The notes: a model not told the origin generated them from the sequence alone. A stretch of DNA of 41,091 nucleotides from Candidatus Eiseniibacteriota bacterium (GCA_035716085.1 DASTKC010000198.1:1-41091); one strand, 5' to 3'. Shown: positions 5,544 to 41,091, counted from the stretch's first letter. Numbers and translations: made by a program.

Positions 5544-5553
5544 GAGCCGCCCC

Positions 5554-11503: not shown

Positions 11504-11505
11504 GC

Positions 11506-12549: not shown

Positions 12550-13946
12550 CGGCGCCTCCGTCCCGCCTCTCCCTCGGGGCTCTGGCCTGGATCGCGCTGG
12601 CCGAGCTCCTTCTCCTCCTCCTCGGTTGGAAGCTCGGCAGCCTCGCCTGGCCGCTGGCGGGCGCCTTCGCCGTCGCGTTCGCGCTCGTGGCCTATCGATC
12701 GCCCGAGACGGCCTGGATCCTGGTCTGGATCGCCACGCCGTTCTCACGCGAGATCGTCGTGGTGGGCGGCGCAGCGGTCTCCGTTCCCACCGAGCCCATG
12801 ATGGCCGTGGCCGTCGGCGTCTGGATCCTACGGCGCTGGCCCTGGCGCGAGGGCTCCGCCGGCCCGCGATCCATCACCCGTCCGCTCTTCGTGCTCGCCG
12901 CGATCGCCCTCGTTTCGATCGCCGTGAGCCGGTTTCCCTTCGAGGGAATGAAGGCGTGGATGATGGCGGCGCTCTATGTCGTGTTCGGCTACCTCTACTT
13001 CGTCTCGACCCCGTTCGATGCCCGCCGGGCGAAGCTCTGGATGGCGCTCGGGGTGCTGCTCGCCTCCCTCCTCTCGATCTACGCTTCGTATCGCGTCCTC
13101 TCGGCCGGCATCGGAGTGCGCTCCGCGTACGGCGCGGCGCGCCCGTTCTTTCCGGAGCACGGAACGTTCTCCGCCTACCTCGCCTTCTTCCTCCCCGTCG
13201 CCATCGTGCAGAGTCTCGCGCGCGAGCGGGGACGACTTCTCTGGACCCTCGGCTCGGCAGCGATCCTCGTCGGGATCGTGCTCTCGTTCACGCGCGCGGC
13301 GTGGCTCTCCGCCGTCTTCGTCCTCCCGCTCCTGCTCGTGTCCTGGATGCTGGGGCGAGGCGGCGCTTCGCGCCTGTGGCTTCCGCTCACGATCGTCGCG
13401 CTCGTGTCGGCCTGGATCGGGACGTCGCGCGTGGCGGATCCGTTTCTCGGGCACGCGCGCACCATCGTGAACAGCGGCAACGTCTCCAATCTCGAGCGCG
13501 TCAATCGATGGATGGCGGCGGCCGAGATGATCCGCGCGCGACCGCTGACCGGGGTGGGATATGGGGTCTACCCTGAGGCCTACCATCAGTACCGCCGGAA
13601 ATCGATCGTGACCGATCAGGCCCTCACCACGTTCGGCGTGCACAACGAGCTCCTGCGAATCCTGTCCGAGACAGGCTGGCCCGGACTCGCCGCCTGCCTC
13701 TGGTTCGTGGGGTCCGTGGCCGTCGTCGGGTTCAGGACCTTCCTCGACCGGCCGGGATCGGCCGAGGGCCGGCTCGCGCTCGGATTGATCCTCGGTCTCA
13801 CCACGTACGCGGTCCACAGCCTCTTCAACTCCTACCTGGGCATCGACAAGATCACCACGCCCTTCTGGGTCTTCCTCGGGATGACCGCGGCGCTCGGAAG
13901 CGCGAGGACCTCGAACGCGGCCCCGGACGAGAAGGACGCGGCGTGA
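12519..13946 (+). CDS. Wzy_C / O-antigen ligase family membrane protein (likely the polymerase)
   Basis: At least 10 hydrophobic segments. SFTRAAWLS, RPLTGVGYGVY, HNELLRILSETGWPG. Confidence 0.78.
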   Translation: MGASARPAALAAPPSRLSLGALAWIALAELLLLLLGWKLGSLAWPLAGAFAVAFALVAYRSPETAWILVWIATPFSREIVVVGGAAVSVPTEPMMAVAVGVWILRRWPWREGSAGPRSITRPLFVLAAIALVSIAVSRFPFEGMKAWMMAALYVVFGYLYFVSTPFDARRAKLWMALGVLLASLLSIYASYRVLSAGIGVRSAYGAARPFFPEHGTFSAYLAFFLPVAIVQSLARERGRLLWTLGSAAILVGIVLSFTRAAWLSAVFVLPLLLVSWMLGRGGASRLWLPLTIVALVSAWIGTSRVADPFLGHARTIVNSGNVSNLERVNRWMAAAEMIRARPLTGVGYGVYPEAYHQYRRKSIVTDQALTTFGVHNELLRILSETGWPGLAACLWFVGSVAVVGFRTFLDRPGSAEGRLALGLILGLTTYAVHSLFNSYLGIDKITTPFWVFLGMTAALGSARTSNAAPDEKDAA

Positions 13947-14055: not shown

Positions 14056-15960
14056 GTGGTGCTTGGATTTGCGCTGGTCCTCGCGTCGCTCCTCGTGGTG
14101 AGCGTCGAGGTCGTGGGCGCCTTGGGGCTCCTCATCGCGCCCATCGCGCTCCCGGGTGTCGCATCGGCGCTCGCGCTGGCCCTACTCATCTCGACGCGCG
14201 TCGTTCCGCGCGAGCCATCGCCGGCCGGCCAGCCCGCCGCCTCCGCGAGCACCGGCACGGGACCGGGTCCGGTGCACGTCGTCGATCGGGTCGCAAGTCG
14301 CGAGGCCCGCGCGATCGGGTTGTCCGCGGTGGTGCTCCTCCTGACCTGGCTGCCGCTCGCCTGGAGCCGGCTCGCGCTTCCGCCCGTATCGTGGGACGCG
14401 CTCACGTATCACCTCGCGTTTCCCGCCGGATGGCTCGAGCGCGGCGATCTCGCGACGACCGTCCCCGCGTCCGGCGATGCGGCAAACACCTTCTATCCGC
14501 TCGTGGGACAGATGCTCCTCGCCTGGAACCTCGTCTCGACCGGCACCGACCGGTGGACGGTCATCGCTCAACTTCCATTCCTCCTCGCGGGAGCTCTCGC
14601 CGTTTCCGGCATCGCGCGGCATCTGGGCGCGACGCGAGGTCCGGCTCTCCTCGCCGGCCTCCTCTTCGCCGCCACGCCGGTCGCGCTGCGCCAGAGCGTC
14701 GAGGTCATGCTCGACGTGGAGCAGGCGGCGCTCTTCGCGATGGCCGCCTACTTCGCGCTCCGCTCCCGAAGCGGGAGCCCGGGTGACGCCATCCTCGGAT
14801 GGCTCGCGGTCGCACTCCTGGCCGGGCTCAAGTATTCGGGAGCCGTTCTCGCGGTCCCGCTCGTCCTCCTCCTCGTTGTCTCGGGTCTTCGTTCGGGACG
14901 GAGCGGTGTCGCGAGTCTCGGCGTGGGTCTGATCGCGGCGCTCGCGGTCGGAGGCTTCGCGTACGTGCGAAACGCCGTCACGTGCGGGAACCCGTTCATG
15001 CCGCTCGAAGTGACCGTGGGCGGGCACGTTCTCTGGCCCGGATCGTCCCATGCGGCCGCCTACTTCGGCCCGAACGCGCCGCGTCTGGGATGGCGGGAGC
15101 TCCTCCTCTCCCCGCGCTGCGTTCTCGAGATGGGGGTCGTCTTCCTCCCCGCGCTCGCCATCCTTGCGATCGGCGCGCTCGCCTTACGCGGCTCGAAGGA
15201 ACGCATGTGGCTCGCGTGGATCGGAGTCGCGGCGTTCGCGCTGTCCGCCCTCGTCCTCCCGTTTCGGGAGCACCGGTACTTCCTGCCGGTCGTCGCGGCG
15301 GCCTGCGCTCTCGCGCCCGGACTCCTTCGAGGCCCGAGGTCGAGGACCTGGTTCGCGCGCGCGGTCCCGGTCGTCGTTCTTCTGCAGGCGCCCGTCTCGC
15401 TCGCCTACGTGGCGAAGGACGTCATGGTCCTCGGTCCGGCCGGAGCGGCGCATGCGTTCGGCCATGGTGCTTCGACCGGATACGAGAGCTCCCGGTACGA
15501 GCGATGGCTCTCCTACTGGAGCACGCGCCATGAGTGGGAGGACCGCGCCCACGCGCGCGCCGATCTCAGGGACATGGCCGCCGCGTGGGCCTGGATCGCC
15601 GGGCACACGGACCTCGCTCCCGCGATCGTGGCCTATGCCGGAGCGAACACTCCCTATCCATTCACCGGTGAAGGCTCGCGCAATCGCGTTCTCTTCGTGC
15701 CGCGCTCGGGCGCCGCGGACGGGACTACGTATCGGTGGGGAAAGCCGCCCGCTTCGGTCCAAGAACCCGATTCGACCGCCTGGCGCTCGAACGTTCGAGC
15801 CCTCGGCGCCGCCTATCTCTGCGTCGTGCGACTCGACGCGCGCTACGGCGGGAGCGGAGCGTTTCCGATCGAAGACGAATGGGCGCGCGCGGACACGGAC
15901 GGGTTCTCGCCGCTCTGGACGTCGGAGAACGCCCGGATCTACGGGGTCCGGGTCCGCTGA
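14056..15960 (+). CDS. Polytopic membrane protein, GT-C-fold (ArnT/PMT-like) glycosyltransferase candidate
   Basis: Many TM segments with a C-terminal soluble domain of about 200 aa. The hydrophobic reading frame continues upstream to CTG 13963, which lies 7 nt after GAGGA. The family call is tentative. Confidence 0.5.
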   Translation: MVLGFALVLASLLVVSVEVVGALGLLIAPIALPGVASALALALLISTRVVPREPSPAGQPAASASTGTGPGPVHVVDRVASREARAIGLSAVVLLLTWLPLAWSRLALPPVSWDALTYHLAFPAGWLERGDLATTVPASGDAANTFYPLVGQMLLAWNLVSTGTDRWTVIAQLPFLLAGALAVSGIARHLGATRGPALLAGLLFAATPVALRQSVEVMLDVEQAALFAMAAYFALRSRSGSPGDAILGWLAVALLAGLKYSGAVLAVPLVLLLVVSGLRSGRSGVASLGVGLIAALAVGGFAYVRNAVTCGNPFMPLEVTVGGHVLWPGSSHAAAYFGPNAPRLGWRELLLSPRCVLEMGVVFLPALAILAIGALALRGSKERMWLAWIGVAAFALSALVLPFREHRYFLPVVAAACALAPGLLRGPRSRTWFARAVPVVVLLQAPVSLAYVAKDVMVLGPAGAAHAFGHGASTGYESSRYERWLSYWSTRHEWEDRAHARADLRDMAAAWAWIAGHTDLAPAIVAYAGANTPYPFTGEGSRNRVLFVPRSGAADGTTYRWGKPPASVQEPDSTAWRSNVRALGAAYLCVVRLDARYGGSGAFPIEDEWARADTDGFSPLWTSENARIYGVRVR

Positions 15961-16946: not shown

Positions 16947-18522
<1,576 letters not shown>

Positions 18523-18600
18523 GGAGCCGCAGTCTATCCAAGGCGAGCCCCGCCCGGCCAGGGCCTTGACCCCGGGACGGCCCGGCCCCAGGATCACGGG

Positions 18601-19797
18601 GTGTCGCTCGCCCTCGAGCGCGGGGCCGCGCTCTCGTTCCTCCTTCTGGCCGCCGCGCTTCCCTGGTCCATCGCGCCCATGTCGATCGCGGTCGCGCTGT
18701 CGGGCGCGCTCACGCTCGCATGCTGGTGGCGCCCCGGAGGCGCGCGCTGGGTGCGCACGCCGGTCGATCCGGCCGCCATCGTGTGGCTGATCGCGCTCGG
18801 GATCGCGGCGCTCGCCGGGGAGGATCCGGCGGGGAGCGTGAATCGCGTCACGAAGGGATTCCTTCTCGCCATCGTTCCTCTTGCGGCCTATCACGGACGC
18901 GATCCCAAGCTCGCGCGGCGCGCGATCGCGGTGCTCCTCGTTTCGGCGGCCGTCGCGACGGTGTTCGCGCTCGTGAAGTTCGCCATGCAGGGGGGCGCGT
19001 TTCCGGTGCGCGTGCGGGGCGCGGTGGGGCATCCACTCACCTACGGCGGTCAGGCGATGCTCCTCGCGGTGCTCGCGGGGGCGATCCTCCTCCGCTCGCG
19101 CGACCGGCGCTGGAAGGGCGCGGCCGGCGCGCTGCTCCTTCTGCTCGCCCCGGCGCTCCTCGGGAGCTACACCCGGAGCGCGTGGATCGGCACCCTCGTC
19201 GGATTCGCGATCCTGATCGGCTTCACGCGCGCGCGATGGCTCCCCGCGCTCCTGGGAGCGCTTCTCGTCCTCGTGCTGGTCCTGCCTGGCGGCTACCGGG
19301 AGCGCGCGCTGAGCGTGTTCCATCCGCACGGCGTCTGGAACCGCGAGCGGATCATTCTCTGGGACGCGGGGTGGCGGATGTTTCGCGACCATCCGGTGAC
19401 CGGAGTCGGGCTCGAGGACTTGAAGCCCTGGGTGGCGCGATACCGCTCGCCCGAGGCGCACGAGCCGCCGCACGGCCACATGCACAACGTGTATCTGCAA
19501 GTGCTCGTCACGATGGGCGTGATCGGATTCGCGGCGTTCGTCTATCTGGTCACGGCGCTCTGGCGCACCGCCGCGCGCCGTCTCCGCGTCGATGCGCGCT
19601 CCCTAGACGCGGATCCCTTCGGCATGGCCCTTCGGATCGGGACCGTGGCCGCGCTCGCGGGATTCCTCGTCGCGGGACTCTTCGAGTGGAATTTCGGCGA
19701 CGAGGAGCTTCTCGATTTCCTGTTCACGCTGATCGGCCTCGCCTGGGCGGCGAGCGCCTGGAGGCACGTACGCCCCGTCGCGCCGCCCTCGTCCTGA
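18601..19797 (+). CDS. Second Wzy_C / O-antigen ligase family membrane protein (WaaL-like candidate)
   Basis: GTG start divergent from the methyltransferase. SYTRSAWIG, HPVTGVGLEDL, HMHNVYLQVLVTMGVIG. Confidence 0.78.
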   Translation: MSLALERGAALSFLLLAAALPWSIAPMSIAVALSGALTLACWWRPGGARWVRTPVDPAAIVWLIALGIAALAGEDPAGSVNRVTKGFLLAIVPLAAYHGRDPKLARRAIAVLLVSAAVATVFALVKFAMQGGAFPVRVRGAVGHPLTYGGQAMLLAVLAGAILLRSRDRRWKGAAGALLLLLAPALLGSYTRSAWIGTLVGFAILIGFTRARWLPALLGALLVLVLVLPGGYRERALSVFHPHGVWNRERIILWDAGWRMFRDHPVTGVGLEDLKPWVARYRSPEAHEPPHGHMHNVYLQVLVTMGVIGFAAFVYLVTALWRTAARRLRVDARSLDADPFGMALRIGTVAALAGFLVAGLFEWNFGDEELLDFLFTLIGLAWAASAWRHVRPVAPPSS

Positions 19798-20957
19798 CGC
19801 CGCGGCTTCCGTGGCCGGAGGATGACGGGGGACGGATCGCCACGGCCCAGTCGATCTGGGCGGCGGCGCAGGAGTACGACGTCACGGTGATCTCGTTCGC
19901 GCAGGAAGCGCCCGGCCCCACGCCTGAGCCGTGGCTTGGTCTCGGCATCGACGTGAAAACGGTGCCGCATCGCCCGCCGTCCAAGCCCGTCGCCCTAGCC
20001 CAGGGGCTCTTGGGGAAGCTCCCCTACACGCTCGCGCGCTACCGGAGCGCGGCGTTCGCCCGTGTCGTGGACGAGTGCGTCCGCACCCTTCGCCCCGCGT
20101 TCGCGCTCGCGAACAACCTCCACACGGCCTCGTATGTCGATCGCCTCGACGGCGTCCCGCTCGTTCTGCGCGAGCAAAACCTCGAGCACCTCTGGATGAG
20201 CCGCTACGCCGAGGAGTCGCTCGGCGGCCTGGCACGCGTGTACGCGGGCATCCAGGCCCGTCGGCTCAAAGCCGCCGAGCGAGCGTTTTGCCGCGCCGCG
20301 GCGCTGACGCTCGCGATCCAGGATCTGGAGCGGGACGCGCTGCGAGCGCTCGCCCCCGGCGCGTGGATCGAGACCTTGCCGGTCGGGATCGATCTCGACC
20401 GATTCGGTGAGCCGCGGACCGCCGATCCGCCGATCGTGCTCCTAGCGGGGGCGTTCGGATGGCCGCCGACCGCGTCGGGCGCGATCCGGTTCCTGAAGGA
20501 CGGTTGGCCGCGAGTGCGCGCGGCCGTTCCGGGCGCTCGCCTGCGCGTGGTGGGGAAGTCGCAGCCGGACGACCTCGTGCGCGCCGCACGCGCTCTCGGT
20601 GCGGACGTGGTGACCGTCGTTCCGTCGATGGCCGAGGAGATGGCTCGGGCCTCGGTGATGGTGGTCCCGCTCTGGAGCGGCGCCGGGGCGCGCGTCAAGA
20701 TCATGGAAGCCCTCGCGGCGCGCCTCCCGGTCGTCGCGACGCCGATCGGGGCCGAAGGGTTAGGGCTCGAACAAGGGCGTCATCACGTCGAAGGGGAGAG
20801 CGCGGGGGAGTTGGGGGACCGGACGGGCGCGCTCCTTCGCGACCCGGAGCGGCGCGCGTCGCTCGCGCGGGAAGGCCGGGCGTACGCGGAGGCCCACTGG
20901 TCGCAGGCCGCCGTGGCGCGGCTCCAGAACGAGCTCGTGGGACGAATCGCTCGATGA
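19686..20957 (+). CDS. Family 4 (GT-B) glycosyltransferase, start codon uncertain
   Basis: The conserved N-terminus LVLTPRLPWPEDDGG begins near 19785, with no ATG/GTG/TTG nearby. The nearest upstream in-frame GTG is 19686. C-terminal E-x7-E-like KIMEALAARLPVVATPIGAEG. Confidence 0.72.
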   Translation: MEFRRRGASRFPVHADRPRLGGERLEARTPRRAALVLTPRLPWPEDDGGRIATAQSIWAAAQEYDVTVISFAQEAPGPTPEPWLGLGIDVKTVPHRPPSKPVALAQGLLGKLPYTLARYRSAAFARVVDECVRTLRPAFALANNLHTASYVDRLDGVPLVLREQNLEHLWMSRYAEESLGGLARVYAGIQARRLKAAERAFCRAAALTLAIQDLERDALRALAPGAWIETLPVGIDLDRFGEPRTADPPIVLLAGAFGWPPTASGAIRFLKDGWPRVRAAVPGARLRVVGKSQPDDLVRAARALGADVVTVVPSMAEEMARASVMVVPLWSGAGARVKIMEALAARLPVVATPIGAEGLGLEQGRHHVEGESAGELGDRTGALLRDPERRASLAREGRAYAEAHWSQAAVARLQNELVGRIAR

Positions 20958-22087
20958 ACGAGTACGTTCTCTTCTTCCTGTCGGCCGTCGTGTCCGTGGT
21001 GGTGAACGCGCTCGGCCGCCTGCGTGGGCGCTCCGAACCGAGCCGCATCCTCGTCGTGAAGCTGGACCATCTCGGGGACGTGATCCTCGCGACTCCGGCC
21101 ATTCGCGCGCTCCACATGCGCTACCCCAAGGCCGTGATCGACGTGCTCGTCCATCCCGGGGGTACGGCCGCGGTCGCGCATCATCCCGGCGTCCACAGCG
21201 TCCTCACGTATCGCTCGCCGCGATTCTCGCGCGATGGAACGGCCGACGATTCGTCGCGCCTCCACGAAGTCGCCCGGACGCGGTACGACACCGTCGTGGA
21301 GCTGCGCGGCGACGGGCGGACGCTTCTCCTGCCGTTTCGGACCGGCGCCCGTCGGCGCGTGGATCGAGGAACGGTGCGACTCCGCAATAAGGCCCTGCGC
21401 GTCCTCGGACGCGCGCCTACGCTCCACGAGGTGGAGACCAATCTCGAGATCGTGCGGCCGCTCGTCGGGGCGCCGGCGGCTCGTCCCCGGGTCGAAGTGG
21501 ATCCTGGGCCCGAGGCGCGTGCCTCGCTGACCCGGACGCTCGAGGAGCGGGCCGTTCCGGCCGGTGCGCGCCTCGTCGTGCTCCACCCGGGCGCCGCGTG
21601 GCGTCCGCGCGCGTGGCGCCCGGAGCGGTTCGGGGCGGTTGCCGACTGGATTCTCGGCCACTATGATGCCCAGGTCGTGCTCGTCGGCTCCGAGGACGAG
21701 CGGGATGTCGAGGACCTGGTGCGGCGCTCGATGCGGGAGGATCGGGCTCTGGCGATGACCGGCTCGCTGACGCTCGAGGAATTGACGGCGCTGCTCGGTC
21801 GATCGGCCCTCTTCATCGGGAACGACAGCGGCCCCGCCCACCTGGCGGCCGCCTGCGGCGTACCGTCCATCGTGCTCTTCGGACCCCAGGACCCGCGCCG
21901 CTTCGGTCCGTGGTCGGAGCGCACCCAGGTGCTTCACCATCCGGTCGCGTGCTTTCCGTGCCGCCAGACCGTGTGCGTGATGGCCGAGGATCCCTGCGTG
22001 AACCGAAACGAAGTCGCCGACGTGATCGCGAGAGCGCGCGACCTCCTGGGGCCGCCCGAGCGCGTCCAAGCCGCGGCGCGGGGCTGA
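20954..22087 (+). CDS. Family 9 glycosyltransferase (heptosyltransferase-like)
   Basis: ILVVKLDHLGDVILATPAIRAL, VLHPGAAW, GNDSGPAHLAAACGVPSIVLFGP. ATGA overlap with the GT4 stop. Confidence 0.85.
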   Translation: MNEYVLFFLSAVVSVVVNALGRLRGRSEPSRILVVKLDHLGDVILATPAIRALHMRYPKAVIDVLVHPGGTAAVAHHPGVHSVLTYRSPRFSRDGTADDSSRLHEVARTRYDTVVELRGDGRTLLLPFRTGARRRVDRGTVRLRNKALRVLGRAPTLHEVETNLEIVRPLVGAPAARPRVEVDPGPEARASLTRTLEERAVPAGARLVVLHPGAAWRPRAWRPERFGAVADWILGHYDAQVVLVGSEDERDVEDLVRRSMREDRALAMTGSLTLEELTALLGRSALFIGNDSGPAHLAAACGVPSIVLFGPQDPRRFGPWSERTQVLHHPVACFPCRQTVCVMAEDPCVNRNEVADVIARARDLLGPPERVQAAARG

Positions 22088-31073: not shown

Positions 31074-31100
31074 CCGGTGCCATCCCACCGGTGTGGTTTT
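31074..31100 (+). other. Leader hairpin CCGGTG-ccatcc-CACCGG followed by GTGTGGTTTT
   Basis: 6 bp perfect inverted repeat, 6 nt loop and a downstream T4 run, lying between the putative promoter and the ATG at 31118. Confidence 0.3.
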
Positions 31101-31117
31101 CGCGAGGGCCAAACGAC

Positions 31118-32797
31118 ATGTCACAGCGCCCTGATCCAATGCACGAGAACGATCCAACGCCTGAATTGCCGGAAATGGACCCGCTCGAACGTCTGAGCCG
31201 GGGGCTCACACAATGGGAACGTGAGCTTCTGGCGCAGCCGCGTTCGCCGGCGCGTCCGCGCGCGTCCACCGATCTCGAGCGCGTCAACAACGTGCTCCAG
31301 GCGAGCCGCCAGGTTACCGGCACGCTCGACTGGAACGAGCTCCTGATACGCGTCGTCGACGCCGTCGTTCAGATCGCCGGCGCCGATCGCGGCTTCCTCA
31401 TGCGCATGCGCGAGGATGGAAAGCTCCACTTCGAGATCGCGCGGAGCCGCGACGAGGCCACGCTGCCGCCGGACGAGTTCCAGATCTCCTGGGGCATCGC
31501 CGAGGAAGCGGCGCACCGCCGCGAGACCGTCTGGGTTCCCGACGCCGTCGGCTCCTCCCTCTTCCAGGATCGAAAGAGCGTCCGCGAGCTCTCGCTTCGC
31601 ACCGTCGTCGCTCTTCCCATCCTGACCGCGGGGCGCGTGCTCGGCGTGCTCTACGTCGACTCGCATTCGATCGCGCACGAGTTCACTCCCGAAGACATCG
31701 CGATTCTCGAAGGCTTCGCGGCGCAGGTCGCGGTGGCGCTCGAGAACGCGCGGCTGCACGAAGAGCTCAAGGATTCGAAGAACCGTCTCGAGATGGAGAA
31801 CCTGAATCTCCGCCGCGCGCTCAAGGAGGAGTCGCGGTACGGCCTCCTCGTGGGCCGGAGCCCGAAGATGCTCCGCGTCATCGAGCTCATGGAGAAGGTC
31901 ATCCCGACGCAGGTGTCGATCCTGATCCAGGGCGAGACGGGAACCGGGAAGGAGCTGATCGCCCGCGCGATCCATCTGAACGGCCCGCGCCGCGAGAAGA
32001 ACTTCATGGCGGTGAACTGCGGCGCGCTGCCGGAATCGCTCCTCGAGAGCGAGCTCTTCGGCTACCGGAAGGGTGCATTCACCGGCGCGTCGGAAGACCG
32101 CATCGGCCTCTTCGAAGCGGCGGACGGCGGGACGTTGTTCCTGGACGAGGTGGGGGAGATGCCCGCCACGCTCCAGGTGAAGCTCCTCCGCGTGCTTCAG
32201 GACTCGCAAATCCGTCGCGTCGGGGACACCGTGTCCCGCCGCGTGGATTTCCGTCTGATCGCCGCGACCAACCGCGACCTCAAGACCGAGGTCGAGGCTG
32301 GGCGATTCCGCCAGGACCTCTTCTACCGGCTCAACGTGGTGCCGATCTCGCTGCCGCCGCTTCGCGAGCGGGGCGAGGACGTGCTCCTTCTCTCGCAGCA
32401 CTTCCTCGAGCTCTTCTCGAAGCAGCAGGAGAAACCGGTGCGCGGCCTGAGCGCGGAATCGCGGGAGCTCCTGCTCCGTCATCCGTGGCCGGGGAACGTC
32501 CGCGAGTTGGAGAACGCCATGGCTCGCGCGGTCGCGCTGGCCGACGAGGGAGGCGCCATCGAGCCGCTCCTCTTCGGGCTGGGCGCGCCGGTCACGCGGC
32601 GCTGGGACGGCCAGCACACGCTGCGGGAGACGCTCGACGCCGTCGAGGCGGAGACGATCCGCGAAGCGCTGCGCCAGTGCGAGTCGAACGTCTCGCGCGC
32701 GGCGCGTGCCCTCGGCGTGAGCCGCCAGCATCTCCACAACCGGATGAACGCGCACGGCATCCGCCGCTCCCGGACCCTGAGCGAGTCCGCCGGATAG
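31118..32797 (+). CDS. Sigma-54-dependent transcriptional activator (GAF sensor, AAA+ domain, Fis-type HTH)
   Basis: GAF-like N-terminus (GADRGFLM...ALPIL...GVLYVDS). Walker [15 protein letters not shown] motif (KGAFTGA), Walker [16 protein letters not shown]-terminal [23 protein letters not shown]. No receiver domain. Confidence 0.9.
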
Positions 32798-32886: not shown

Positions 32887-33837
32887 ATGCAGAGCGATGC
32901 CGAGATCCGCGCGCAGTTCCCCGAGTACTTCCTCACGTATTACACGTACCTCCGCATCATTCGGAACCCCGCGCGCATCGAGCACCTCTTCCAGAAGGGG
33001 TACGACATGTACCGCTACCTCGAAGCCGAGGGGAAGGACGTGCTCGATCTGGGGGCGGGATTCGGGATCGAGGCGCTCCTCGTCGCGATCTACGGCGCTC
33101 GGCGCGTGGTGGCGACCGAGATCGACCACGACATGGTCGCGGTCGGGACCTATCTCGCGGAGAAGATCGATCCGCCGGCCACCCACTTCGAATCCAAGTA
33201 CGGCGACGGGATCGGGATGGAGTTCCCGTCCGCCTCCTTCGACGGGGTCATGGCCAACTGCGTCATCTCGCACGTGCGGGATCTCGAGGGCTTTCTCGCG
33301 GAGGCGAATCGCCTGCTCCGGCCGGGCGGGATCTTCTTCCTGAGCGACGAGAACAACTCGCTCTACCTTCCCGCGCGCGGCCGGCGCCGGCGCGGCTGGC
33401 ACAGCATGGAGCACGAGCCGGACGGTCCTTACTTCGCCGCCCGGCGAGCGATGATCGGGGAGCGCTTTCCCGGGCTCAGCTCGAACCAGCTTCTCGAGGC
33501 GGTGCGGCAGACGCGCGGCCTCTGGGGAGAGGGCGTCGAAGCGGGGGTTCGGGAGCTCGTGGAGACGGGCCGGGTTGAGCGGAAGCCCGAGTTCCTGTAC
33601 CGGGATCCTCGCGACGGGCAGTACCCCGAGCGGGAGCTCAATCCGTTCTGGATGATGCGAAAGTTCAAGGACGCCGGACTCGAGCCGGAGCTCTTGCCGG
33701 CGTTCTTCTCGCGCGCCATCGAGGTGCATCCACGGCAGTGGGTGAAGGATTTCCTCCGGTTCTTCTGCGTGCGGTGGCCGGCCTTGTCGGTCTACGTCTG
33801 GCCCATCATGCGGCTCCGCGGGCGAAAACTGCGTTGA
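32887..33837 (+). CDS. Class I SAM-dependent methyltransferase with a C-terminal extension of about 150 aa
   Basis: VLDLGAGFGIEAL, VATEID, DGVMANCVISHV, LRPGGIFF. An alternative in-frame GTG at 32803 lies just after the regulator stop. Confidence 0.72.
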   Translation: MQSDAEIRAQFPEYFLTYYTYLRIIRNPARIEHLFQKGYDMYRYLEAEGKDVLDLGAGFGIEALLVAIYGARRVVATEIDHDMVAVGTYLAEKIDPPATHFESKYGDGIGMEFPSASFDGVMANCVISHVRDLEGFLAEANRLLRPGGIFFLSDENNSLYLPARGRRRRGWHSMEHEPDGPYFAARRAMIGERFPGLSSNQLLEAVRQTRGLWGEGVEAGVRELVETGRVERKPEFLYRDPRDGQYPERELNPFWMMRKFKDAGLEPELLPAFFSRAIEVHPRQWVKDFLRFFCVRWPALSVYVWPIMRLRGRKLR

Positions 33838-33871
33838 CACTGCCTTGTAACGTCGCCTAGGCTGCGGCCTA

Positions 33872-35062
33872 GTGAAGTCCGTGAGCGTCACCTTGATCGG
33901 GCTTTTCCTCGCGGCGAATGCCTTCGCCGCCCCTATCGACGCGCCCGCTACCCCGCCTCCCGACCTTCCCATCCCGCAGAACCTGGTCGCCAAGGACAAG
34001 CCAGGAGACTCCGGTGGGTCCGTCGTCCTGACGTGGACGGACCCGGTTTCGCTTCCCGCCGGGGCGGACATCGAGGTGCTCCGGGCGGAGCCGCCGGCCT
34101 ACGACCTGCAGCCGATCGATCACGTGGCGGCCGGCAAGGGGACGTATACCGACACTTCGGCCAAGGACGGCGTGGCGTACCGCTACGGCCTCCGGACCAG
34201 CCTTGCGGCGACCGACTCCACGGGGGCGGTCAGCGTGGCGGCCGCGACCGGCGCTCCGGTCGTGAGCGAGCCCGTCTCCTCGCACGACAACTGGTTCAAG
34301 GTCGAGCGCACCAACTCCTTCATCGCCTCGATCCTGTTCGTGATCATCATCCTCGGCTCGATCCAGGTGGCGCGCTCCGGCAAGGAGATCTTCATCCGCC
34401 GGATCGCAGGCTTGAACGCCATCGACGAGGCCATCGGCCGCGCGACGGAGATCGGCAAGAAGGTGATGTACATCCCCGGCATCCAGTCGATGGATGACAT
34501 CCAGACCGTCGCCTCGGTGGCGATCCTGGGCCATGTGGCGCGCTCGACCGCGCGCTACGGCACCGACCTCGAGGTGCCGAACAAGGACCCGCTCACGTTC
34601 GCCTCCGCGCGCGAGGTCGTCCGCGCGGCCTACCTCGAGGAAGGGAGGCCGGATCTCTTCCGCGAGGAGATGGTGAACTACGTCACGTACGACCAGTTCG
34701 CCTTCACCGCGGCGGTCTCCGCGAAGATGACGCGCGAGAAGCCGGCCGCGATCTTCCTGGTCGGCTACTTCTTCGCGGAGTCGCTCATCCTGGCCGAGAC
34801 GGGGCAGTCGACCGGAGCGATCCAGATCGCCGGGCAGGCCGATCCCACGCAGCTCCCGTTCTTCGTGGCGACCTGCGACTACACGCTGATCGGCGAGGAG
34901 CTCTACGCGGCGAGCGCGTACCTCTCGCGCGAGCCGGTCCTGCTCGGCTCCATCCGTGGGCAGGACATCGCCAAGGGCATCCTCATCCTCATCGCGATCG
35001 CTGGCATCGTGCTCGCGAGCGTCCACCTGGTCGACATCTCCCCCTGGATCCGAACCAAATGA
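33872..35062 (+). CDS. Uncharacterised envelope protein A: signal peptide, FN3-like domain, TM, ~195 aa domain, C-terminal TM
   Basis: GTG start. MKSVSVTLIGLFLAANAFA/AP signal. FN3-like PQNLVA...GSVVLTWTDP...TYTDTSAKDGVAYRYGLRT. Hydrophobic FIASILFVIIILGSI and GILILIAIAGIVLASV. Codon usage matches its neighbours. Confidence 0.7.
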   Translation: MKSVSVTLIGLFLAANAFAAPIDAPATPPPDLPIPQNLVAKDKPGDSGGSVVLTWTDPVSLPAGADIEVLRAEPPAYDLQPIDHVAAGKGTYTDTSAKDGVAYRYGLRTSLAATDSTGAVSVAAATGAPVVSEPVSSHDNWFKVERTNSFIASILFVIIILGSIQVARSGKEIFIRRIAGLNAIDEAIGRATEIGKKVMYIPGIQSMDDIQTVASVAILGHVARSTARYGTDLEVPNKDPLTFASAREVVRAAYLEEGRPDLFREEMVNYVTYDQFAFTAAVSAKMTREKPAAIFLVGYFFAESLILAETGQSTGAIQIAGQADPTQLPFFVATCDYTLIGEELYAASAYLSREPVLLGSIRGQDIAKGILILIAIAGIVLASVHLVDISPWIRTK

Positions 35063-35859
35063 GCTTCGAATTCGGACAGGTCGCTCTCGTCCTCTGCTTC
35101 GCGATCGTTCCGATCATCGGGATCGTGCTGGGGCTGAACGCGCCCGGTCTTCGGAGCCGCGGCCCGATCCTGATTGGCGTCGTCGCCGGCCTCGTCCCCA
35201 TCTTGGCGATGTACATCCCGAAGGGCTTCGTGTCGGGACCCGAGGGAATGGGGCCCCGGCTCGACAACTGGCTCATCATCCTGGCGGGGTTCGCCCTGCT
35301 CCTCGGGATCGTGAACGTGCTGCAGAACAATTTTAAGAAAATCGCGCGCCGGGAGTCCGGCTGGTTCTTCTCGGTCGTTCTCCTGATCGGGCTCTTCGTC
35401 ACGGGAGGGTTCGGAGTCTACGGGGCGCTCTCGAGGGTGGGCATCGGCTTCAATCCGGATGGCTCGCCGACGCCGTTCAAGTACATGACCGACTGGTTCT
35501 TCCAGCCGCTCCAGTCCACGATCTTCGCGCTCCTCGCGTTCTTCATGGCGAGCGCGGCGTTCCGCGCGTTCCGCGCCAGGAACGTGGAGGCGACGATCCT
35601 CCTCATCGCCGCCGGCCTCGTGATGCTCGGCCGCGTTCCGATCCTCGAGTTCCTGGCGGTTCCGTTCCCGTTCCTCCATGCGGCCGCCGCGTCCGGCAGC
35701 CAGGGGTTGGGGAAGCTCACCGAGTGGATCATGGACGTGCCGAACGGAGCGGCGCAGTCGGGCATCATCATCGGCGCGGCGCTCGGCGCCGCGTCCATGG
35801 CGATCCGCGTGATTCTCGGCATCGAGCGCGGCTACCTCGGCCTGGGGAAGGGGGAGTAG
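35059..35859 (+). CDS. Uncharacterised polytopic membrane protein B (about 7 TM)
   Basis: ATGA overlap with A. Seven hydrophobic segments. I recognised no motif. Confidence 0.7.
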   Translation: MSFEFGQVALVLCFAIVPIIGIVLGLNAPGLRSRGPILIGVVAGLVPILAMYIPKGFVSGPEGMGPRLDNWLIILAGFALLLGIVNVLQNNFKKIARRESGWFFSVVLLIGLFVTGGFGVYGALSRVGIGFNPDGSPTPFKYMTDWFFQPLQSTIFALLAFFMASAAFRAFRARNVEATILLIAAGLVMLGRVPILEFLAVPFPFLHAAAASGSQGLGKLTEWIMDVPNGAAQSGIIIGAALGAASMAIRVILGIERGYLGLGKGE

Positions 35860-35860
35860 G

Positions 35861-36733
35861 GTGCGCGCGTTCTTGGAACGGCTCCTCCGCCTGGATCGCC
35901 GCTGGATCTTTCTCTTCGTCCTCCTGAGCGTCGCGATTCCGATCGTGATTCCCCTTGGGCTTCCCGTGACCACGACCGAATCCACGCGCAAGGCCTTCGA
36001 GTTCATCGAAGCCATGAAGCCCGGCGACACGGTGCTGATCTCGTTCGACTACGGGCCGTCCTCGGCCCCGGAGAACGATCCGATGGCCGAAGCCGTCATG
36101 CGGCAGTGCGCGATCAAGAAGCTCCGCTTCATCGTGATCGCGCTCTACCCGCTCGGAGGGCTGAACCTCGCCAACAACGTCGTCGCCAAGGTCGCGGCCG
36201 AGTACCCCGATCTCAAGTACGGCGTCGATTACGTCAATCTCGGCTACAAGGACGGCGCGTCGGCGGTCATGCGCCGGATGGGGGACGACATCGCGGGCGC
36301 GTTCCCGACGGACGAGGCGGGCACTCCCATCGCGCAGATCCCGATGATGAAGGGGATCGGAAGCCTTCGTCAGGTGCAGCTCGTCTTCACGGTGGCGACC
36401 GGGATCATCGGGGAGTGGTGGATCACGCAGGTGCACCCGCAGGTGGGCACACCGGTCATCATCGGTCCGACCGCGGTGAGCGCTCCCAAGTACTATGCCT
36501 TCCTGAACTCGGGCCAGCTCGTCGGAATGATCGGAGGCATGAAGGGCGCTGCCGAGTACGAGAAGCTCATGCGCGCGGCCCATCCCGACATGGAACGCTT
36601 CTACAAGTCGACCCGCGACTTCACGGCCACCAAGGGGATGGATGGGCAGACTGTGATGCACACGGTCGTACTCCTCTTTATCCTGCTCGGCAATCTGGCG
36701 TTCTTCCTCACTCAGAAGAGGGCGGTCCGGTGA
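35861..36733 (+). CDS. Uncharacterised bitopic protein C: N-terminal TM, ~220 aa globular domain, C-terminal TM
   Basis: GTG 1 nt after the B stop. RRWIFLFVLLSVAIPIVIPLGL and VMHTVVLLFILLGNLAFFL flank a soluble domain. Confidence 0.7.
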   Translation: MRAFLERLLRLDRRWIFLFVLLSVAIPIVIPLGLPVTTTESTRKAFEFIEAMKPGDTVLISFDYGPSSAPENDPMAEAVMRQCAIKKLRFIVIALYPLGGLNLANNVVAKVAAEYPDLKYGVDYVNLGYKDGASAVMRRMGDDIAGAFPTDEAGTPIAQIPMMKGIGSLRQVQLVFTVATGIIGEWWITQVHPQVGTPVIIGPTAVSAPKYYAFLNSGQLVGMIGGMKGAAEYEKLMRAAHPDMERFYKSTRDFTATKGMDGQTVMHTVVLLFILLGNLAFFLTQKRAVR

Positions 36734-37356
36734 GCCATCTGCCCCCGATCGGCGTCTGGATCGCGGCGTTCCTGACCCTCTCCGCGCTCTCGTTCCTGTA
36801 CAAGGACAACCCGTTCTTCCGCTTCGCGGAGAGCCTCTTCGCCGGCGTGTCGCTCGGCTACTACGTGGGGATCACCCTCGACCAGACCCTCGTCCCGAAC
36901 CTGATCGAGCCGATGCAGCAGGACTTCGGCAAGCACTGGGATCTGCTCGTGCCGGGGCTTCTCGGGGTGTTGCTCTACGCGCGCTATCTGCCGCGGATCG
37001 GATGGGTCTCGCGCTACGCGCTGGCGATCTACGTGACCTACTACATCGGGCTCGATTTCACGCGGCGTCTGCATGGCGAAGCCATGCCGCAGATCGCCCG
37101 CGTCATCGTGGCCCTCCCCGGGCCGAATCCGCTCGCGTTCATCTTCGTGGTGGGCGTGCTGAGCGTGCTGGTCTACTTCTTCTTCTCGAAGGAGCAGGGG
37201 CCGGTGACGCGGAGGATTTCGAGGCTGGGGATCTGGTTCCTGATGATCTCGTTCGGCGCCGCCTTCGGCTTCACGGTCATGGGCCGCGTCGCCCTTCTGA
37301 TCGGCCGCCTCAACTTCCTGATTCTGGACTGGATCTACCCGATTCTCGGGATTTGA
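36730..37356 (+). CDS. Uncharacterised polytopic membrane protein D (about 6 TM)
   Basis: GTGA overlap with C. Six to seven hydrophobic segments. The 3' end overlaps the convergent regulator gene by 47 nt. Confidence 0.68.
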   Translation: MSHLPPIGVWIAAFLTLSALSFLYKDNPFFRFAESLFAGVSLGYYVGITLDQTLVPNLIEPMQQDFGKHWDLLVPGLLGVLLYARYLPRIGWVSRYALAIYVTYYIGLDFTRRLHGEAMPQIARVIVALPGPNPLAFIFVVGVLSVLVYFFFSKEQGPVTRRISRLGIWFLMISFGAAFGFTVMGRVALLIGRLNFLILDWIYPILGI

Positions 37357-38083
37357 TCTCCGGGTCCGTCGCGGGCTTCACCGCCGGCCCGGGGTCGGGC
37401 GCGTCCGACGACGCCTTGAAGTTCACCATCGGCACCGTCGTCCGGTTCCCCGCCGGATAGTCCACCGTCACCACGTCCCGAAGCGCCGCGATCCGCTGCG
37501 TGAGACCCGCGATCGTCTCCGTCGCCGCCCGGATGCGAGCCACCTTCTCCCGGGCCTCCGGCGTCAGCGTGGGCTGCACGTAGAGGAGCTGCGCGTTCCC
37601 CTGGATCACTTGCAGGGGATTGTTGATCTCGTGGTTCAGCGCCACCGCCATGGCCGAGACCGCCTTCATGCGCTCGGCGCGGAGCCGGTCCTCGGTCGCG
37701 CGATGCGCCGCGAGCGCGTTCCGCACCTTGATCGGGAGCTGGAACCGCACGTCCCACTCGGTGAGCGGCTTCATGAAGTAGTCCGACGCGCCGAGCGTGA
37801 GGCTCCGCTCCACGTCCTCGGGGGATGTCGACGCGCTCGCCACGATCACCGGGATCTCCTTCCAGCGGTCGTCCTTCTTCATCGCGAGGAGCACGTCGAA
37901 GCCGTTCGGCGACGGCATCATGAGGTCGAGCAGCACGAGCCCGATCGTCTCCTGGCCCAGGATCTCGAGCGCCTGGTTCCCGTTGTCCGCCTCGAAGAAG
38001 ACGTAGTCCCCCTGGCGCAAGACCATGCGCAGGAGCTTCCGGTTGTGCGCCTCGTCGTCAACGAGAAGCAGGTGCTGGGCCAT
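37310..38083 (-). CDS. Response-regulator receiver fused to a HisKA-like DHp domain, no ATPase domain
   Basis: REC: LLVDDE, LVLLDLMMP, DYFMKP. Then an H-box-like ALNHEINNPLQVIQGNAQLL plus one more helix. The protein ends in a low-complexity tail with no N/G1/F/G2 boxes. Confidence 0.82.
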   Translation of the reverse strand: MAQHLLLVDDEAHNRKLLRMVLRQGDYVFFEADNGNQALEILGQETIGLVLLDLMMPSPNGFDVLLAMKKDDRWKEIPVIVASASTSPEDVERSLTLGASDYFMKPLTEWDVRFQLPIKVRNALAAHRATEDRLRAERMKAVSAMAVALNHEINNPLQVIQGNAQLLYVQPTLTPEAREKVARIRAATETIAGLTQRIAALRDVVTVDYPAGNRTTVPMVNFKASSDAPDPGPAVKPATDPEIKSRESGRSSPESGS

Positions 38084-38480
38084 GAGCCCCTTTCTCCGCC
38101 AGAGTGCGAATGCGCGCGATCAGCTCGTCCGCGCTCACGATCGGTTTCGCGATGTAATCGTCGGCTCCCGACTCGGCGAGGAAGCGCTCGCGAGAGCCCT
38201 TCATCGCGTGCGCCGTCGCCAGAAGGATGGGAGTGCGCCGGGTCTCTGGATCCCGCTTCAGCCGGCGGCAGATCTCGAGACCGTCGACCGGAACGCCATC
38301 CCACGCGCTGTTCGAGAGCGACACGTCGAGGATCACCACGTCGACGAGGCCCTGCCGCACGCGGTCGGCCACGTACGCCGGATCCTCCGTCACCTCGACC
38401 TCGTACCGCGCCTTCCGGGTCAGGATGAGGCCGAACAGCTTGGCGTTCATCGGGTCGTCCTCGATGATCAGGATCCGCAC
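38058..38480 (-). CDS. Single-domain response regulator (REC only)
   Basis: ILIIEDD, VVILDVSL, LLATAHA, DYIAKP. GTG start overlaps the kinase stop by 13 nt. The 3' end overlaps the next gene by 26 nt. Confidence 0.86.
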   Translation of the reverse strand: MRILIIEDDPMNAKLFGLILTRKARYEVEVTEDPAYVADRVRQGLVDVVILDVSLSNSAWDGVPVDGLEICRRLKRDPETRRTPILLATAHAMKGSRERFLAESGADDYIAKPIVSADELIARIRTLAEKGAHGPAPASR

Positions 38481-40408
38481 GACTCCGCCTCCGTTGGAGC
38501 CGCCTGCGCCACGGGCAGCGTGATCCGGACCACGGTGCCGCGGTTCACGCCTTCGCTCGTGAGCTGAATGGTGCCCCCCATGAGATCGACGAGCGCGCGG
38601 CTGATCGCGAGACCGAGCCCCGTTCCGCGCTGGCGCCGGTGATAGGACGGGTCCGCCTGCGCGTACTTGCTGAAGAGCGCGGCCCGGCGCTCCGGCGCGA
38701 TGCCGACGCCCGTGTCCTCGACCGACACGACGATCGAGCCCGCGTCGATTCCGGCGCGGACCCGCACCTCTCCTCTATCGGTGAATTTCACCGCGTTCCC
38801 GAGCAGATTCAGGAGCACCTGCCGGAACCGGGCGAGATCGACCGCCGCGGAGAGCGGCTCCTTGGGAACGTCGACCCGGACCGCCAATCCCTTGGCCGAG
38901 GCCATCGGCTGGACCGCGTCGACCGCGCCCCGGATCGTCGGCGCGATGTCGGCCACGAGGAGCCGGAGCTCGAACCGCCCCGCCTCAGCCTTCGCGAGAT
39001 CGAGAAGGTCGTTGATGACGGAGAGGAGGTGCTCCGCGGCCTGGCGAATGGACCGTGCGAAGTCGAGGCGCTCGCCTTCGTCCGCGTCGATCCGCTGCTC
39101 GAGCAATGTGGCGAACCCGATCACGGCGTTGAGCGGCGTGCGGAGCTCGTGCGAGGTGTTCGCGAGGAAGTCGTTCTGCAGCCGGCGCGCCAGCTCGAGC
39201 TCGTGGTTCGCGTCGAGGAGCCGCTCGTTCATGCTTCCGAGCTCCGCTCCGCGCGCGCGGTCCTCCTGCTCGCCTTCTCGGCGCTCGGTGATGTCGCGCG
39301 CCACGAGGACGATCGCGGTCAGCGCTCCCGCGCGGTCGTGTGCCGGCGAGAGCCGCACCTCGGCCGGGAACGTGCTCCCGTCGCCGCGGCGAAAGCCGAG
39401 CTCGCCCGAGAACTCTCCCGATGCGCGCGCCACGTCGAGCGCGGCCGCGGGACCTGAAGCGGGAACGAGCGCTTCGCCATCGGCTCCGGTCGCGCCGGGG
39501 GCGAAGGCCAGGTCGTGAAGCCGGCGTCCGAGGAGCTCGCCGGGTTGAGCGGAGAGCGCAAGCTCGGCCGCGCGGTTGGCGCTCGACACGACTCCGTCGA
39601 GGTCGAGCTCGAGCACGATCTCGCTCGTCCCGACGAGGTAGGAGGCGAGGATCTGATCGCGCCGCTCGAGTCGAAGGCGACGGAGCCCGGATGCGAGCTG
39701 CGCGGCCATCCAGCGGAGGAGCGCGCGCTCCTCGTTCGCGAGCGAGGCGCCGGCCGGGAGGAAGCACTGGAGCGTGGCCGGGAGCCCTTCGTGCTCGAGG
39801 AAGGGAACCGAGACGACCGCGGTATCGGCGCCGAGCTCCGGCAGCGTGGCGGCAAACGCATCGCGCTCCGAGCCCGCGAGGTCGCCCACCACGATCTCAC
39901 CGAGCCAGGCCGCGCGGCTCGCGTGCGCCCGCGCCTCCGGTCCCGGCGCGTCCGGCTCGAGGGCGACGTTCGCCTCGGGCGTGAGGCCGCGCGTCGCCAC
40001 GAGCGTGAACTCGCCGCGGCCGCCCCGGTGCGCGTAGAGCGCCCAGTGTCGAAGACCGGTGCCTTCGGCCACCGCGTCGAGCGCGTGATGGACCAGGTCG
40101 TCCTCGCGGTCGAACCTCGCGAGGGTATCGCCGACCCGGTAGAGGCTGAGCTGCGCTTCCCGCGCCTGGGCGCGATCCAGGTCCTGGACGCGCGTCCGAT
40201 GGAGCCACCCGGCCGCGAGGATCAAGGCCAGACCGGCAGGCCAAGCAGCCCAGGGCACACTCGAGGACGACGCGATCCACCCGACCGTGAGGCACGCGAG
40301 AAGGGCGCCCAAGATGGCGAAGACGAGGGAGCGGCGCTTGGCGCGGGCGATCCCGGCGGGGCTGGATACCCCTGGCGCTGCGAGCGATGGGTTGTAGGTG
40401 CTCGGCAC
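38468..40408 (-). CDS. Membrane sensor histidine kinase (2 TM, GAF-like, PAS, HisKA, HATPase_c)
   Basis: SHELRTPLNAVIGF H-box. LLNLLGNAVKFT (N box), VEDTGVGI (G1), GTGLGLAISR (G2). PAS-like GVVSSANRAAELAL...FRRGDGSTFPAEV. The start is set at the in-frame GTG at 40408 (ORF-track arithmetic), because the longer ORF to 40744 overlaps a convincing plus-strand lipoprotein gene. TTG 40534 is an alternative. Confidence 0.85.
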   Translation of the reverse strand: MPSTYNPSLAAPGVSSPAGIARAKRRSLVFAILGALLACLTVGWIASSSSVPWAAWPAGLALILAAGWLHRTRVQDLDRAQAREAQLSLYRVGDTLARFDREDDLVHHALDAVAEGTGLRHWALYAHRGGRGEFTLVATRGLTPEANVALEPDAPGPEARAHASRAAWLGEIVVGDLAGSERDAFAATLPELGADTAVVSVPFLEHEGLPATLQCFLPAGASLANEERALLRWMAAQLASGLRRLRLERRDQILASYLVGTSEIVLELDLDGVVSSANRAAELALSAQPGELLGRRLHDLAFAPGATGADGEALVPASGPAAALDVARASGEFSGELGFRRGDGSTFPAEVRLSPAHDRAGALTAIVLVARDITERREGEQEDRARGAELGSMNERLLDANHELELARRLQNDFLANTSHELRTPLNAVIGFATLLEQRIDADEGERLDFARSIRQAAEHLLSVINDLLDLAKAEAGRFELRLLVADIAPTIRGAVDAVQPMASAKGLAVRVDVPKEPLSAAVDLARFRQVLLNLLGNAVKFTDRGEVRVRAGIDAGSIVVSVEDTGVGIAPERRAALFSKYAQADPSYHRRQRGTGLGLAISRALVDLMGGTIQLTSEGVNRGTVVRITLPVAQAAPTEAESCGS

Positions 40409-40553
40409 GGAGGCCTCGGGTAGGAGGGACGGCGCCAGGGTCCGTTCGGGACTATCGGCACCCGAGACCTGGAACTGGAGCCGCCGCGCCGGGTTTCTGC
40501 GGGTGGTGCTTCCTGCTAGCGTCCAATGCCGCAAGGGGATATCATCCGTCCTC

Positions 40554-41091
40554 GTGCGCTCCCGCCCAATCCTCGTGTCCCTCCTTCTCGCCATCTGGTC
40601 CCTGGCCCTGTCCGGTTGTTCGAACAACAGCGACCGGGTCACGGGGAACGAGCGCCTGATTCGTGGCGCGGGGGGGCTCGGGTCGACCCTGGTCGAGACC
40701 ACCATCCCGGACCGGGACACGTACGTGACACCCGGGACCGCCAACTACGGCTCCGTCCTCCTCGTGGGGCGTGACGCGACGTTCGAAGCCCGCGCCTTTT
40801 TCAAGATCCTGCGCATCAACCTGCCGAGCACCGATTTCGTGAGCGTCGTACCGACCGGGAACGTGCTGCTCGACTTCCCTCACGTCCCGCTCCGCAATGA
40901 GCCCCTTTCCATTGATCTCGAGCTGCGTGAGACGGCCACGGCTCTGGCCGATAGCGGAACGATCGCGTGGCCAGGCCCCGCGCCTGGGGTTCTTCTCGCG
41001 TCGAGCACCTACGACTTCTCCGGGGATCTGGTCATGGATCTCGGGCCGGGGAGCTATAGCCGCGTGGTGCAGTGGACGACCCCCGATCCCG
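40554..41091 (+). CDS. Putative lipoprotein, 3'-partial (absent from the ORF track because it has no stop in the window)
   Basis: GTG start, then VRSRPILVSLLLAIWSLALSGC/SNNSD. This is a positively charged n-region, a hydrophobic core and an L-S-G-C lipobox. Frame 0 stays open to the window end, with typical GC3-rich codons. Confidence 0.6.
   Translation, partial: MRSRPILVSLLLAIWSLALSGCSNNSDRVTGNERLIRGAGGLGSTLVETTIPDRDTYVTPGTANYGSVLLVGRDATFEARAFFKILRINLPSTDFVSVVPTGNVLLDFPHVPLRNEPLSIDLELRETATALADSGTIAWPGPAPGVLLASSTYDFSGDLVMDLGPGSYSRVVQWTTPDP

Follow-up and report, generated by a model that had tools for sequence, protein, structure and literature searches.

The subject of this analysis is a set of four adjacent genes, here called A to D, at positions 33872 to 37356 of a 41,091-nucleotide (nt) contig of Candidatus Eiseniibacteriota bacterium (GCA_035716085.1 DASTKC010000198.1:1-41091), the whole of which is referred to as the window. 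The A-D cassette is genuine and previously undescribed, and on present evidence it cannot be assigned to any known kind of system. It is an autonomous unit, strongly conserved in Candidatus Eisenbacteria and related candidate phyla of the Fibrobacteres-Chlorobi-Bacteroidetes (FCB) group, and it encodes four membrane proteins, none of which belongs, as judged from sequence, to a characterised family and which probably assemble into one hetero-oligomeric four-subunit complex of the inner membrane.

A conserved and tightly spaced four-gene cassette

The genes are arranged as follows.

33872..35062, + strand: gene A, 396 amino acids (aa), GTG start; homologues of the same length at 95% identity; Pfam DUF6754
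35059..35859, + strand: gene B, 266 aa, ATG start; polytopic membrane protein of no known family
35861..36733, + strand: gene C, 290 aa, GTG start; transmembrane (TM) helix, domain of ~230 aa, TM helix; no known family
36730..37356, + strand: gene D, 208 aa, GTG start; 6-7 TM helices; no known family

These coordinates, proposed by a first-pass annotation of the window, were recovered from the sequence together with the junctions it had described, namely an ATGA overlap of A and B (35059-35062), a TAG-g-GTG arrangement with a 1-nt gap between B and C (35857-35863) and a GTGA overlap of C and D (36730-36733). The contig is of high GC content (65-73%), and the third-position GC of A-C (0.88-0.93) matches that of neighbouring genes of known function; A to D are real genes and appear co-transcribed.

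When GTDB was scanned with each species represented by a single genome, 116 relatives were obtained, mostly Candidatus Eisenbacteria along with some Krumholzibacteriota, Fermentibacteria and unclassified metagenome-assembled genomes (MAGs), and 80 loci were fetched. In the closest relative, a Candidatus Eisenbacteria MAG, A is 96% identical and the whole locus is syntenic. A-B-C-D stand in the same order on one strand in 68 of the 80 loci, with six further loci cut by contig ends and six carrying A alone, so that the operon first read from a single genome is a cassette whose four genes co-occur, in order and tightly spaced, well beyond it. Median intergenic distances in the complete loci are, as upper bounds, 18, 13 and 17 nt, four-nucleotide overlaps being typical of the window's clade. 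The order is kept while identity to the window drops from 98% to ~40-55%, and many positions are invariant in all four proteins, B, C and D being 40-60% identical across clades, as under purifying selection. The literature searched holds no description of a membrane complex in Eisenbacteria.

The gene content varies chiefly in A. Some genomes have a solo A paralogue elsewhere, and others have two tandem A genes before a single B-C-D set, as at L084 (5144-6989) and L056 (7908-9751), two loci of Krumholzibacteriota-like lineages in which the tandem DUF6754 genes encode ~290 aa each. At L086 (6143-6948), A is broken into DUF6754 fragments of 65 aa and 175 aa beside an intact B-C-D; the break reflects a frameshift or an error of assembly, or else A is a pseudogene here. 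Seven loci (L010, L019, L020, L025, L027, L029, L041), ~70% identical to the window and fully syntenic with the Eisenbacteria clade, come from bins labelled Dormiibacterota, Omnitrophota, Hyphomicrobiales, Bacteroidota, Limnocylindrales, Binatia and Acidobacteriota and are most likely mis-binned Eisenbacteria contigs.

Protein A, a DUF6754 member, and its partners

Three parts can be told apart in A.

33872..33928, + strand: predicted Sec-type signal peptide of A, residues 1-19, with cleavage after A-F-A (translation; hydrophobic segment 4-22)
33968..34261, + strand: FN3-like beta-sandwich ectodomain of A, about residues 33-130 (AlphaFold2 model; Foldseek FN3 matches)
34283..35032, + strand: DUF6754 of A, residues 138-387 (Pfam; invariant columns; charges; covariation)

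Residues 138-387 match Pfam DUF6754 (PF20539) with E=1.6e-114 and 381.8 bits versus a cut-off of 27, over model positions 2-251 of 257, so that A is a bona fide member of this family and a named unknown rather than an unrecognisable protein. The latter description, given at first pass to all four, stands for B, C and D, for which no family was matched in Pfam and NCBIfam. The family is otherwise only a named unknown: its Pfam entry spans A and leaves the partners B, C and D outside, no paper in the literature searched mentions DUF6754 or PF20539, and PDB chain sequences contain no solved relative, whether searched with a single sequence or with a profile of 68 diverse DUF6754 sequences.

Hydropathy places the TM helices of A at residues 149-167 and 369-387, with a domain of ~200 aa between them, which is probably cytoplasmic because the N-terminus is exported and a cluster of Arg/Lys follows the first TM helix (positive-inside rule). 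At least 8,000 homologues of A were found in 90%-identity clusters, all named 'hypothetical', and more than 100 columns are invariant among 50 sequences; the most conserved motifs, YIPG, VPNKDP, TYDQF, FFAES, IAGQAD and CDYT, lie in loops after predicted strands. Mean-field covariation of DUF6754 (350 sequences, effective number of sequences (Neff) ~100, gap-free columns, column-shuffled control) gave 13 long-range pairs above the shuffled maximum, among them 201-300, 211-323, 199-285, 222-354, 175-361 and 320-335, and a parallel ladder of 232-237 with 267-272. The pattern would fit a compact alpha/beta domain with a strand order of ~3-2-1-4-5-6 and both ends meeting beside the TM helices, and is suggestive only, since the shuffled control ignores phylogeny.

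The AlphaFold2 (AF2) model of the ectodomain reaches a predicted local distance difference test score (pLDDT) of ~85 for residues 36-111 and matches FN3 structures in Foldseek with E down to 2e-4 and target-normalised template-modelling scores of 0.7-0.78, which identifies the FN3 fold; at the sequence level there is a weak match only (1x5l, E=1.3). In lineages other than the window's clade, A is frequently a short protein (258-305 aa; 258 aa at L058) in which a hydrophobic N-terminal segment is followed by DUF6754 with a TM helix on either side, and as these short forms carry no FN3 part, the ectodomain is, by sequence comparison, an accessory and clade-specific addition and not core. The DUF6754 region was also searched exhaustively against 1.84 billion representative proteins. 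At a clustering of 50% identity, 2,138 clusters matched at E<=1e-3 and 750 at E<=1e-30; the proteins are 283-987 aa long and have the domain at the C-terminus in every case. Among 68 long members, 12 carry a BamB/PQQ-type beta-propeller and three an fn3 domain, the remainder having unannotated N-terminal regions. Variable N-terminal modules on a constant C-terminal module, together with the extra A paralogues, would fit A as an exchangeable adaptor subunit.

B has seven helices both by hydropathy and in its AF2 model, of which six form a core (220-266 aa) with both termini predicted inside by the positive-inside rule and one is an extra N-terminal TM helix of the window's clade; its homologues number at least 7,110, all 'hypothetical'. 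The model, made from a 121-sequence alignment that included distant lineages, has a mean pLDDT of 73.6 and a predicted template-modelling score (pTM) of 0.54, with the core above 90, and found no match by Foldseek among 350,542 PDB chains (best E=6.7).

In C, hydropathy predicts TM helices at residues 16-34 and 265-283 around a domain of ~230 aa, and none of its 3,100 homologues, all 'hypothetical', has a Pfam domain. This domain is probably periplasmic and of alpha/beta type; the periplasmic side follows from the basic nature of both termini and an acidic stretch after the first TM helix. Loops after predicted strands are conserved here as well (SFDYGPSxxPExxP, GYKDG, ATGIIGEW, TAVSAP), and by analogy the conserved loops of A and C may be the usual ligand site of such folds. 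Covariation for C is shallow (Neff ~40) and yielded isolated couplings only (59-93 and 177-201 after renumbering), which are consistent with adjacent parallel strands and are not relied on.

D, with 6-7 TM helices by hydropathy, matched CrgA in five of 15 members, the best at E=0.039 and 14.3 bits versus a cut-off of 24.8; assignment as the CrgA septation protein was rejected as the score is below the Pfam gathering score and only two TM helices are covered. At L064 (10446-11204), D has a hydrophobic-rich insertion of ~57 aa between the fourth and fifth TM helices which other lineages do not have.

The architectures described at first pass for A to D were borne out by hydropathy and, for the FN3 part and B, by AF2, as was the statement that no transporter, glycosyltransferase (GT), ATPase or secretin motif is recognisable: such signatures were absent by hidden Markov model (HMM) searches, by PDB-sequence searches and, for B, by structural search. 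Fifteen divergent members each of B, C and D showed no recurring Pfam family at E<=5, the PDB chain sequences returned low-complexity noise only for A-D (single sequence and profile), and no PADLOC model was matched by A-D at E<=0.1, which sets them apart from known anti-phage defence. HMM searches, along with Foldseek on the FN3 part and B, placed the four together in no characterised system.

Relationships within the cassette were considered as well. The domains and last TM helices of A and C seem by eye to align, yet hhalign gave a probability of 0.2-1.8% and hmmsearch E ~0.14, and the two were rejected as paralogues. Paralogy of B and D is likewise unsupported by hhalign (0.2-1.8%); hmmsearch of B versus D gave E ~0.008 in a 64-sequence database, which is a weak lead. 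Unrelated control pairs gave ~0.6 in hmmsearch. A relation of DUF6754 or C to SLOG (LDcluster4) was dismissed at an hhalign probability of 0.1-0.2%.

Genomic surroundings

The genes that flank the cassette in the window are the following, all of them neighbours in clade 1 only, that is, in the window's own clade, with A at least 66% identical.

31091..32797, + strand: GAF-type sigma-54 activator (Pfam GAF, Sigma54_activat, HTH_8)
32899..33837, + strand: S-adenosylmethionine-dependent methyltransferase, 34 nt upstream of A, start codon uncertain (Pfam Methyltransf_11/25/23)
37310..40744, - strand: convergent REC-HisKA, REC and PAS-histidine-kinase genes (Pfam, synteny)

Upstream of the sigma-54 activator lies a polysaccharide locus of Wzx/Wzy type with Wzz/GNVR, two Wzy_C proteins, Bac_transf, a flippase, GT1, GT2 and GT4 glycosyltransferases and a WecA-like Glycos_transf_4, so that the order is polysaccharide locus, activator, methyltransferase, A-D and convergent two-component genes. 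Pfam thereby agrees with the context given at first pass, including the position at the edge of the polysaccharide locus. What did not survive is the tie of the cassette to this locus and to the regulators, as the succession of WecA-like glycosyltransferase, sigma-54 activator, methyltransferase, A-D and two-component block is kept only in clade 1. In other lineages the cassette follows metG (13 loci), a SLOG/LDcluster4 gene (12 loci), a class I/II aminotransferase gene (eight loci) or a gene for a lipoprotein with both an alkaline-phosphatase-superfamily (Phosphodiest) domain and TPRs (six loci), and in two species it stands at the end of the division and cell wall (dcw) cluster (murD-ftsW-murG-murC-ftsQ-ftsZ-TPR-ABCD). 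Since the neighbours of other lineages differ, the cassette is a self-contained module and its link to exopolysaccharide (EPS) genes and regulators is clade-specific; it is probably a housekeeping module, not an accessory of this EPS locus. GT4-type glycosyltransferases occur within 5 kb in 12 distant loci. The recurrent themes of the neighbourhoods have a weak envelope flavour.

Several of these loci show peculiarities of their own. At L085 one copy of the Phosphodiest-TPR lipoprotein gene is found upstream and a second between A and B, the latter (4964-6940) encoding 658 aa with the lipobox LAGGC, a Phosphodiest domain and C-terminal TPRs; at L074, L075, L076, L078 and L086, the second gene before A encodes an orthologue of this lipoprotein, the intervening gene being SLOG. 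The dcw-linked loci are L082 (1-12288; same contig as L068) and L043, and at L082 ftsA was not called between ftsQ and ftsZ.

The 34-nt gap between methyltransferase and A holds a 6-bp hairpin (CTAGGC-tgcg-GCCTAG, window 33857-33872), the 3' arm of which terminates at the first base of the GTG start of A, and no obvious Shine-Dalgarno sequence precedes A. At the distal end, the 3' ends of D and of the convergent REC-HisKA gene overlap by 47 nt (window 37310-37356), leaving no room for a terminator between D and the convergent unit. No sigma-54 promoter was matched ahead of either the methyltransferase or A (32.7-33.9 kb), and matches across the window are fewer than expected by chance; a sigma-70 promoter scan found nothing, and Rfam gave no matches in the whole window.

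Within the polysaccharide locus, the two Wzy_C (O-antigen ligase/polymerase-like) proteins are separate (window 12519-13946 and 17848-19797), the Wzz/GNVR polysaccharide co-polymerase (PCP; 11251-12549) has no recognisable kinase domain, and a 634-aa protein (14056-15960) has no Pfam match. A gene caller based on third-position GC left several stretches of more than 1 kb without a gene, including 9848-11251 and 19797-21910.

A putative inner-membrane complex and its alternatives

A dedicated hetero-oligomeric machine of the inner membrane, as suggested at first pass, is the most economical reading of a cassette conserved in this way, once it is detached from the EPS locus with which it had been connected. 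In the arrangement proposed, B and D would form a polytopic membrane core of about six TM helices each. A would present its highly conserved, Rossmann-like-looking domain to the cytoplasm, anchored by a TM helix on each side and extended in some lineages by an exchangeable periplasmic adaptor (FN3 or BamB-like beta-propeller), while C would expose to the periplasm an alpha/beta domain that has a conserved pocket, again between two TM helices. An envelope-related substrate, for example a lipid-linked glycan or a phospho-headgroup, might be handled by A inside, passed via B and D and received by C outside, in a device with no dedicated ATPase, and the optional periplasmic modules of A could serve as adaptors for partners in the periplasm or the outer membrane.

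Comparison with known systems gives this arrangement some contours. In the three-component pathways of lipid-linked glycan modification, GtrA/GtrB/GtrC and ArnC/ArnEF/ArnT, small polytopic proteins are combined with one domain at the cytoplasmic face and another at the periplasmic face in a way that A-D may resemble, and glycan genes are often near the cassette; A-D are nevertheless without homology to GT2, GtrA, EamA or GT-C families, so that the analogy is purely architectural. Tol-Pal with TolB and BAM with BamB are trans-envelope systems which have periplasmic beta-propeller partners, and the BamB/PQQ-type propellers or FN3 domains in the periplasmic part of some DUF6754 proteins would by analogy suggest contacts in the periplasm or with the outer membrane. 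Here, however, the propeller is optional and fused to a membrane subunit, and no MotA/ExbB/TolQ-like or TolR-like protein is present. A motor of the MotAB, ExbBD or TolQR type was also rejected on the grounds that Pfam and NCBIfam gave no match and that each bitopic subunit spans the membrane twice, with no aspartate invariant in its TM helices. Identification of A or C as a polysaccharide co-polymerase (Wzz/PCP) failed with the absence of a Wzz or GNVR match.

Overall, the reading favoured here, tentatively, is a housekeeping complex which couples both sides of the membrane in the translocation or processing of an envelope substrate; that it is specifically a translocase or processor of envelope precursors is a guess and a doubtful one. 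Quite possibly, if short of probably, the cassette represents a new class of inner-membrane machine, with three new families, a new fold in B, alpha/beta domains on the cytoplasmic and the periplasmic side, a core of 12-14 TM helices, swappable adaptors in A and a function at the core of envelope biology in Eisenbacteria and in allied candidate phyla.

Several points count against a complex of this kind. Its assembly is deduced from conserved order, spacing and start/stop overlaps, and in view of the six loci with A alone, A may also function where its partners are not encoded alongside. The analysis identified neither an energy source nor a catalytic motif nor a signature of substrate binding. 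A fold match of B may have been missed, its model being only moderately confident as indicated by the pTM, and the DUF6754 part of the A model, all-helical with a pLDDT of 35-45, was unusable and discarded, so that the alpha/beta call for this domain is based on shallow covariation and on a shuffle control blind to phylogeny. Guilt by association is weak, too, because neighbourhoods differ between clades.

Among the alternatives, a divergent known transporter, either an ABC-2 exporter like GldF/GldG or another secondary transporter, in which C would be the tethered substrate-binding protein and the ATPase would be encoded at another locus, is unlikely and still fares best. GldF/GldG is the ABC-2 transporter of Bacteroidota gliding (ABC2_membrane and ABC_transp_aux), and the layout of C, with a large outside domain flanked by a TM helix at each end and a 6-TM partner of ~230-260 aa encoded alongside, would be GldG-like and found likewise in the FCB group; the dimensions and topology of the B core agree with such a transporter, and the marginal B/D profile match could hint at a pseudo-heterodimeric pair of permeases. 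On the other hand, the cassette differs from GldF/GldG in having no sequence similarity, no structural match for B and a second bitopic protein, the domain of which faces the cytoplasm. At E<=5, none of the 15 divergent members of B or D matched an HMM of ABC2_membrane type, no Pfam match to a GldG-like ABC_transp_aux was found in those of C, and no other transporter Pfam family appeared in B, C or D. An ABC ATPase gene is absent from the window and the eight annotated homologous neighbourhoods, as is any ATPase gene in or next to the cassette in every context examined, and the Foldseek search with B found no match in a PDB rich in ABC-2, LptFG and MlaE structures.

Somewhat less probable again is an envelope sensor, in which the periplasmic domain of A would sense and DUF6754 would signal to the sigma-54 activator and the two-component proteins. 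Receptors typically join a constant cytoplasmic domain to a variable extracytoplasmic one, and in clade 1 the cassette is indeed flanked by a GAF-sigma-54 activator and by histidine kinase, REC and REC-HisKA genes. These regulators are, however, gone from the neighbourhood outside clade 1, the short A of many lineages lacks a sensory ectodomain altogether, an output domain of known type is missing, the upstream sigma-54 promoter match was not found, and three more equally conserved membrane proteins are hard to account for. Envelope sensing, raised as an option at first pass, has gained no specific support.

A machine dedicated to export or modification of the adjacent Wzx/Wzy-type EPS, also an earlier idea, is highly improbable, even though the cassette lies directly downstream of the large EPS locus on the same strand and the arrangement is kept across clade 1, down to ~66% identity of A. 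As a component of this pathway the cassette fails on co-occurrence: 43 more distant loci have other contexts, with housekeeping genes and no adjoining EPS locus preceding it, and A-D are far more conserved than the adjoining EPS genes, at 70-80% identity versus 52-65% for the glycosyltransferases of the same loci. Least credible of all are four independent membrane proteins, merely syntenic and without a complex, for which the loci with A alone would speak, but order and tight spacing are held from 98% to ~40% identity though all flanking genes change, and overlapping start and stop codons are commonly seen between genes of co-translated partners.

Soil and sediment hold Eisenbacteria and their relatives in abundance, as yet uncultured, and few of their membrane gene sets are as conserved as the cassette, with A ~70% identical across soil lineages, while three of the four proteins are outside all family databases and none has a solved relative. 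Conserved membrane cassettes of this uncharacterised sort are not rare in candidate phyla. If A-D form one machine, it would be either a lineage-specific answer to one of the core tasks of the envelope or a new architecture of transporter or enzyme. DUF6754 gains its first defined partners and a topology, by which the family becomes experimentally approachable.

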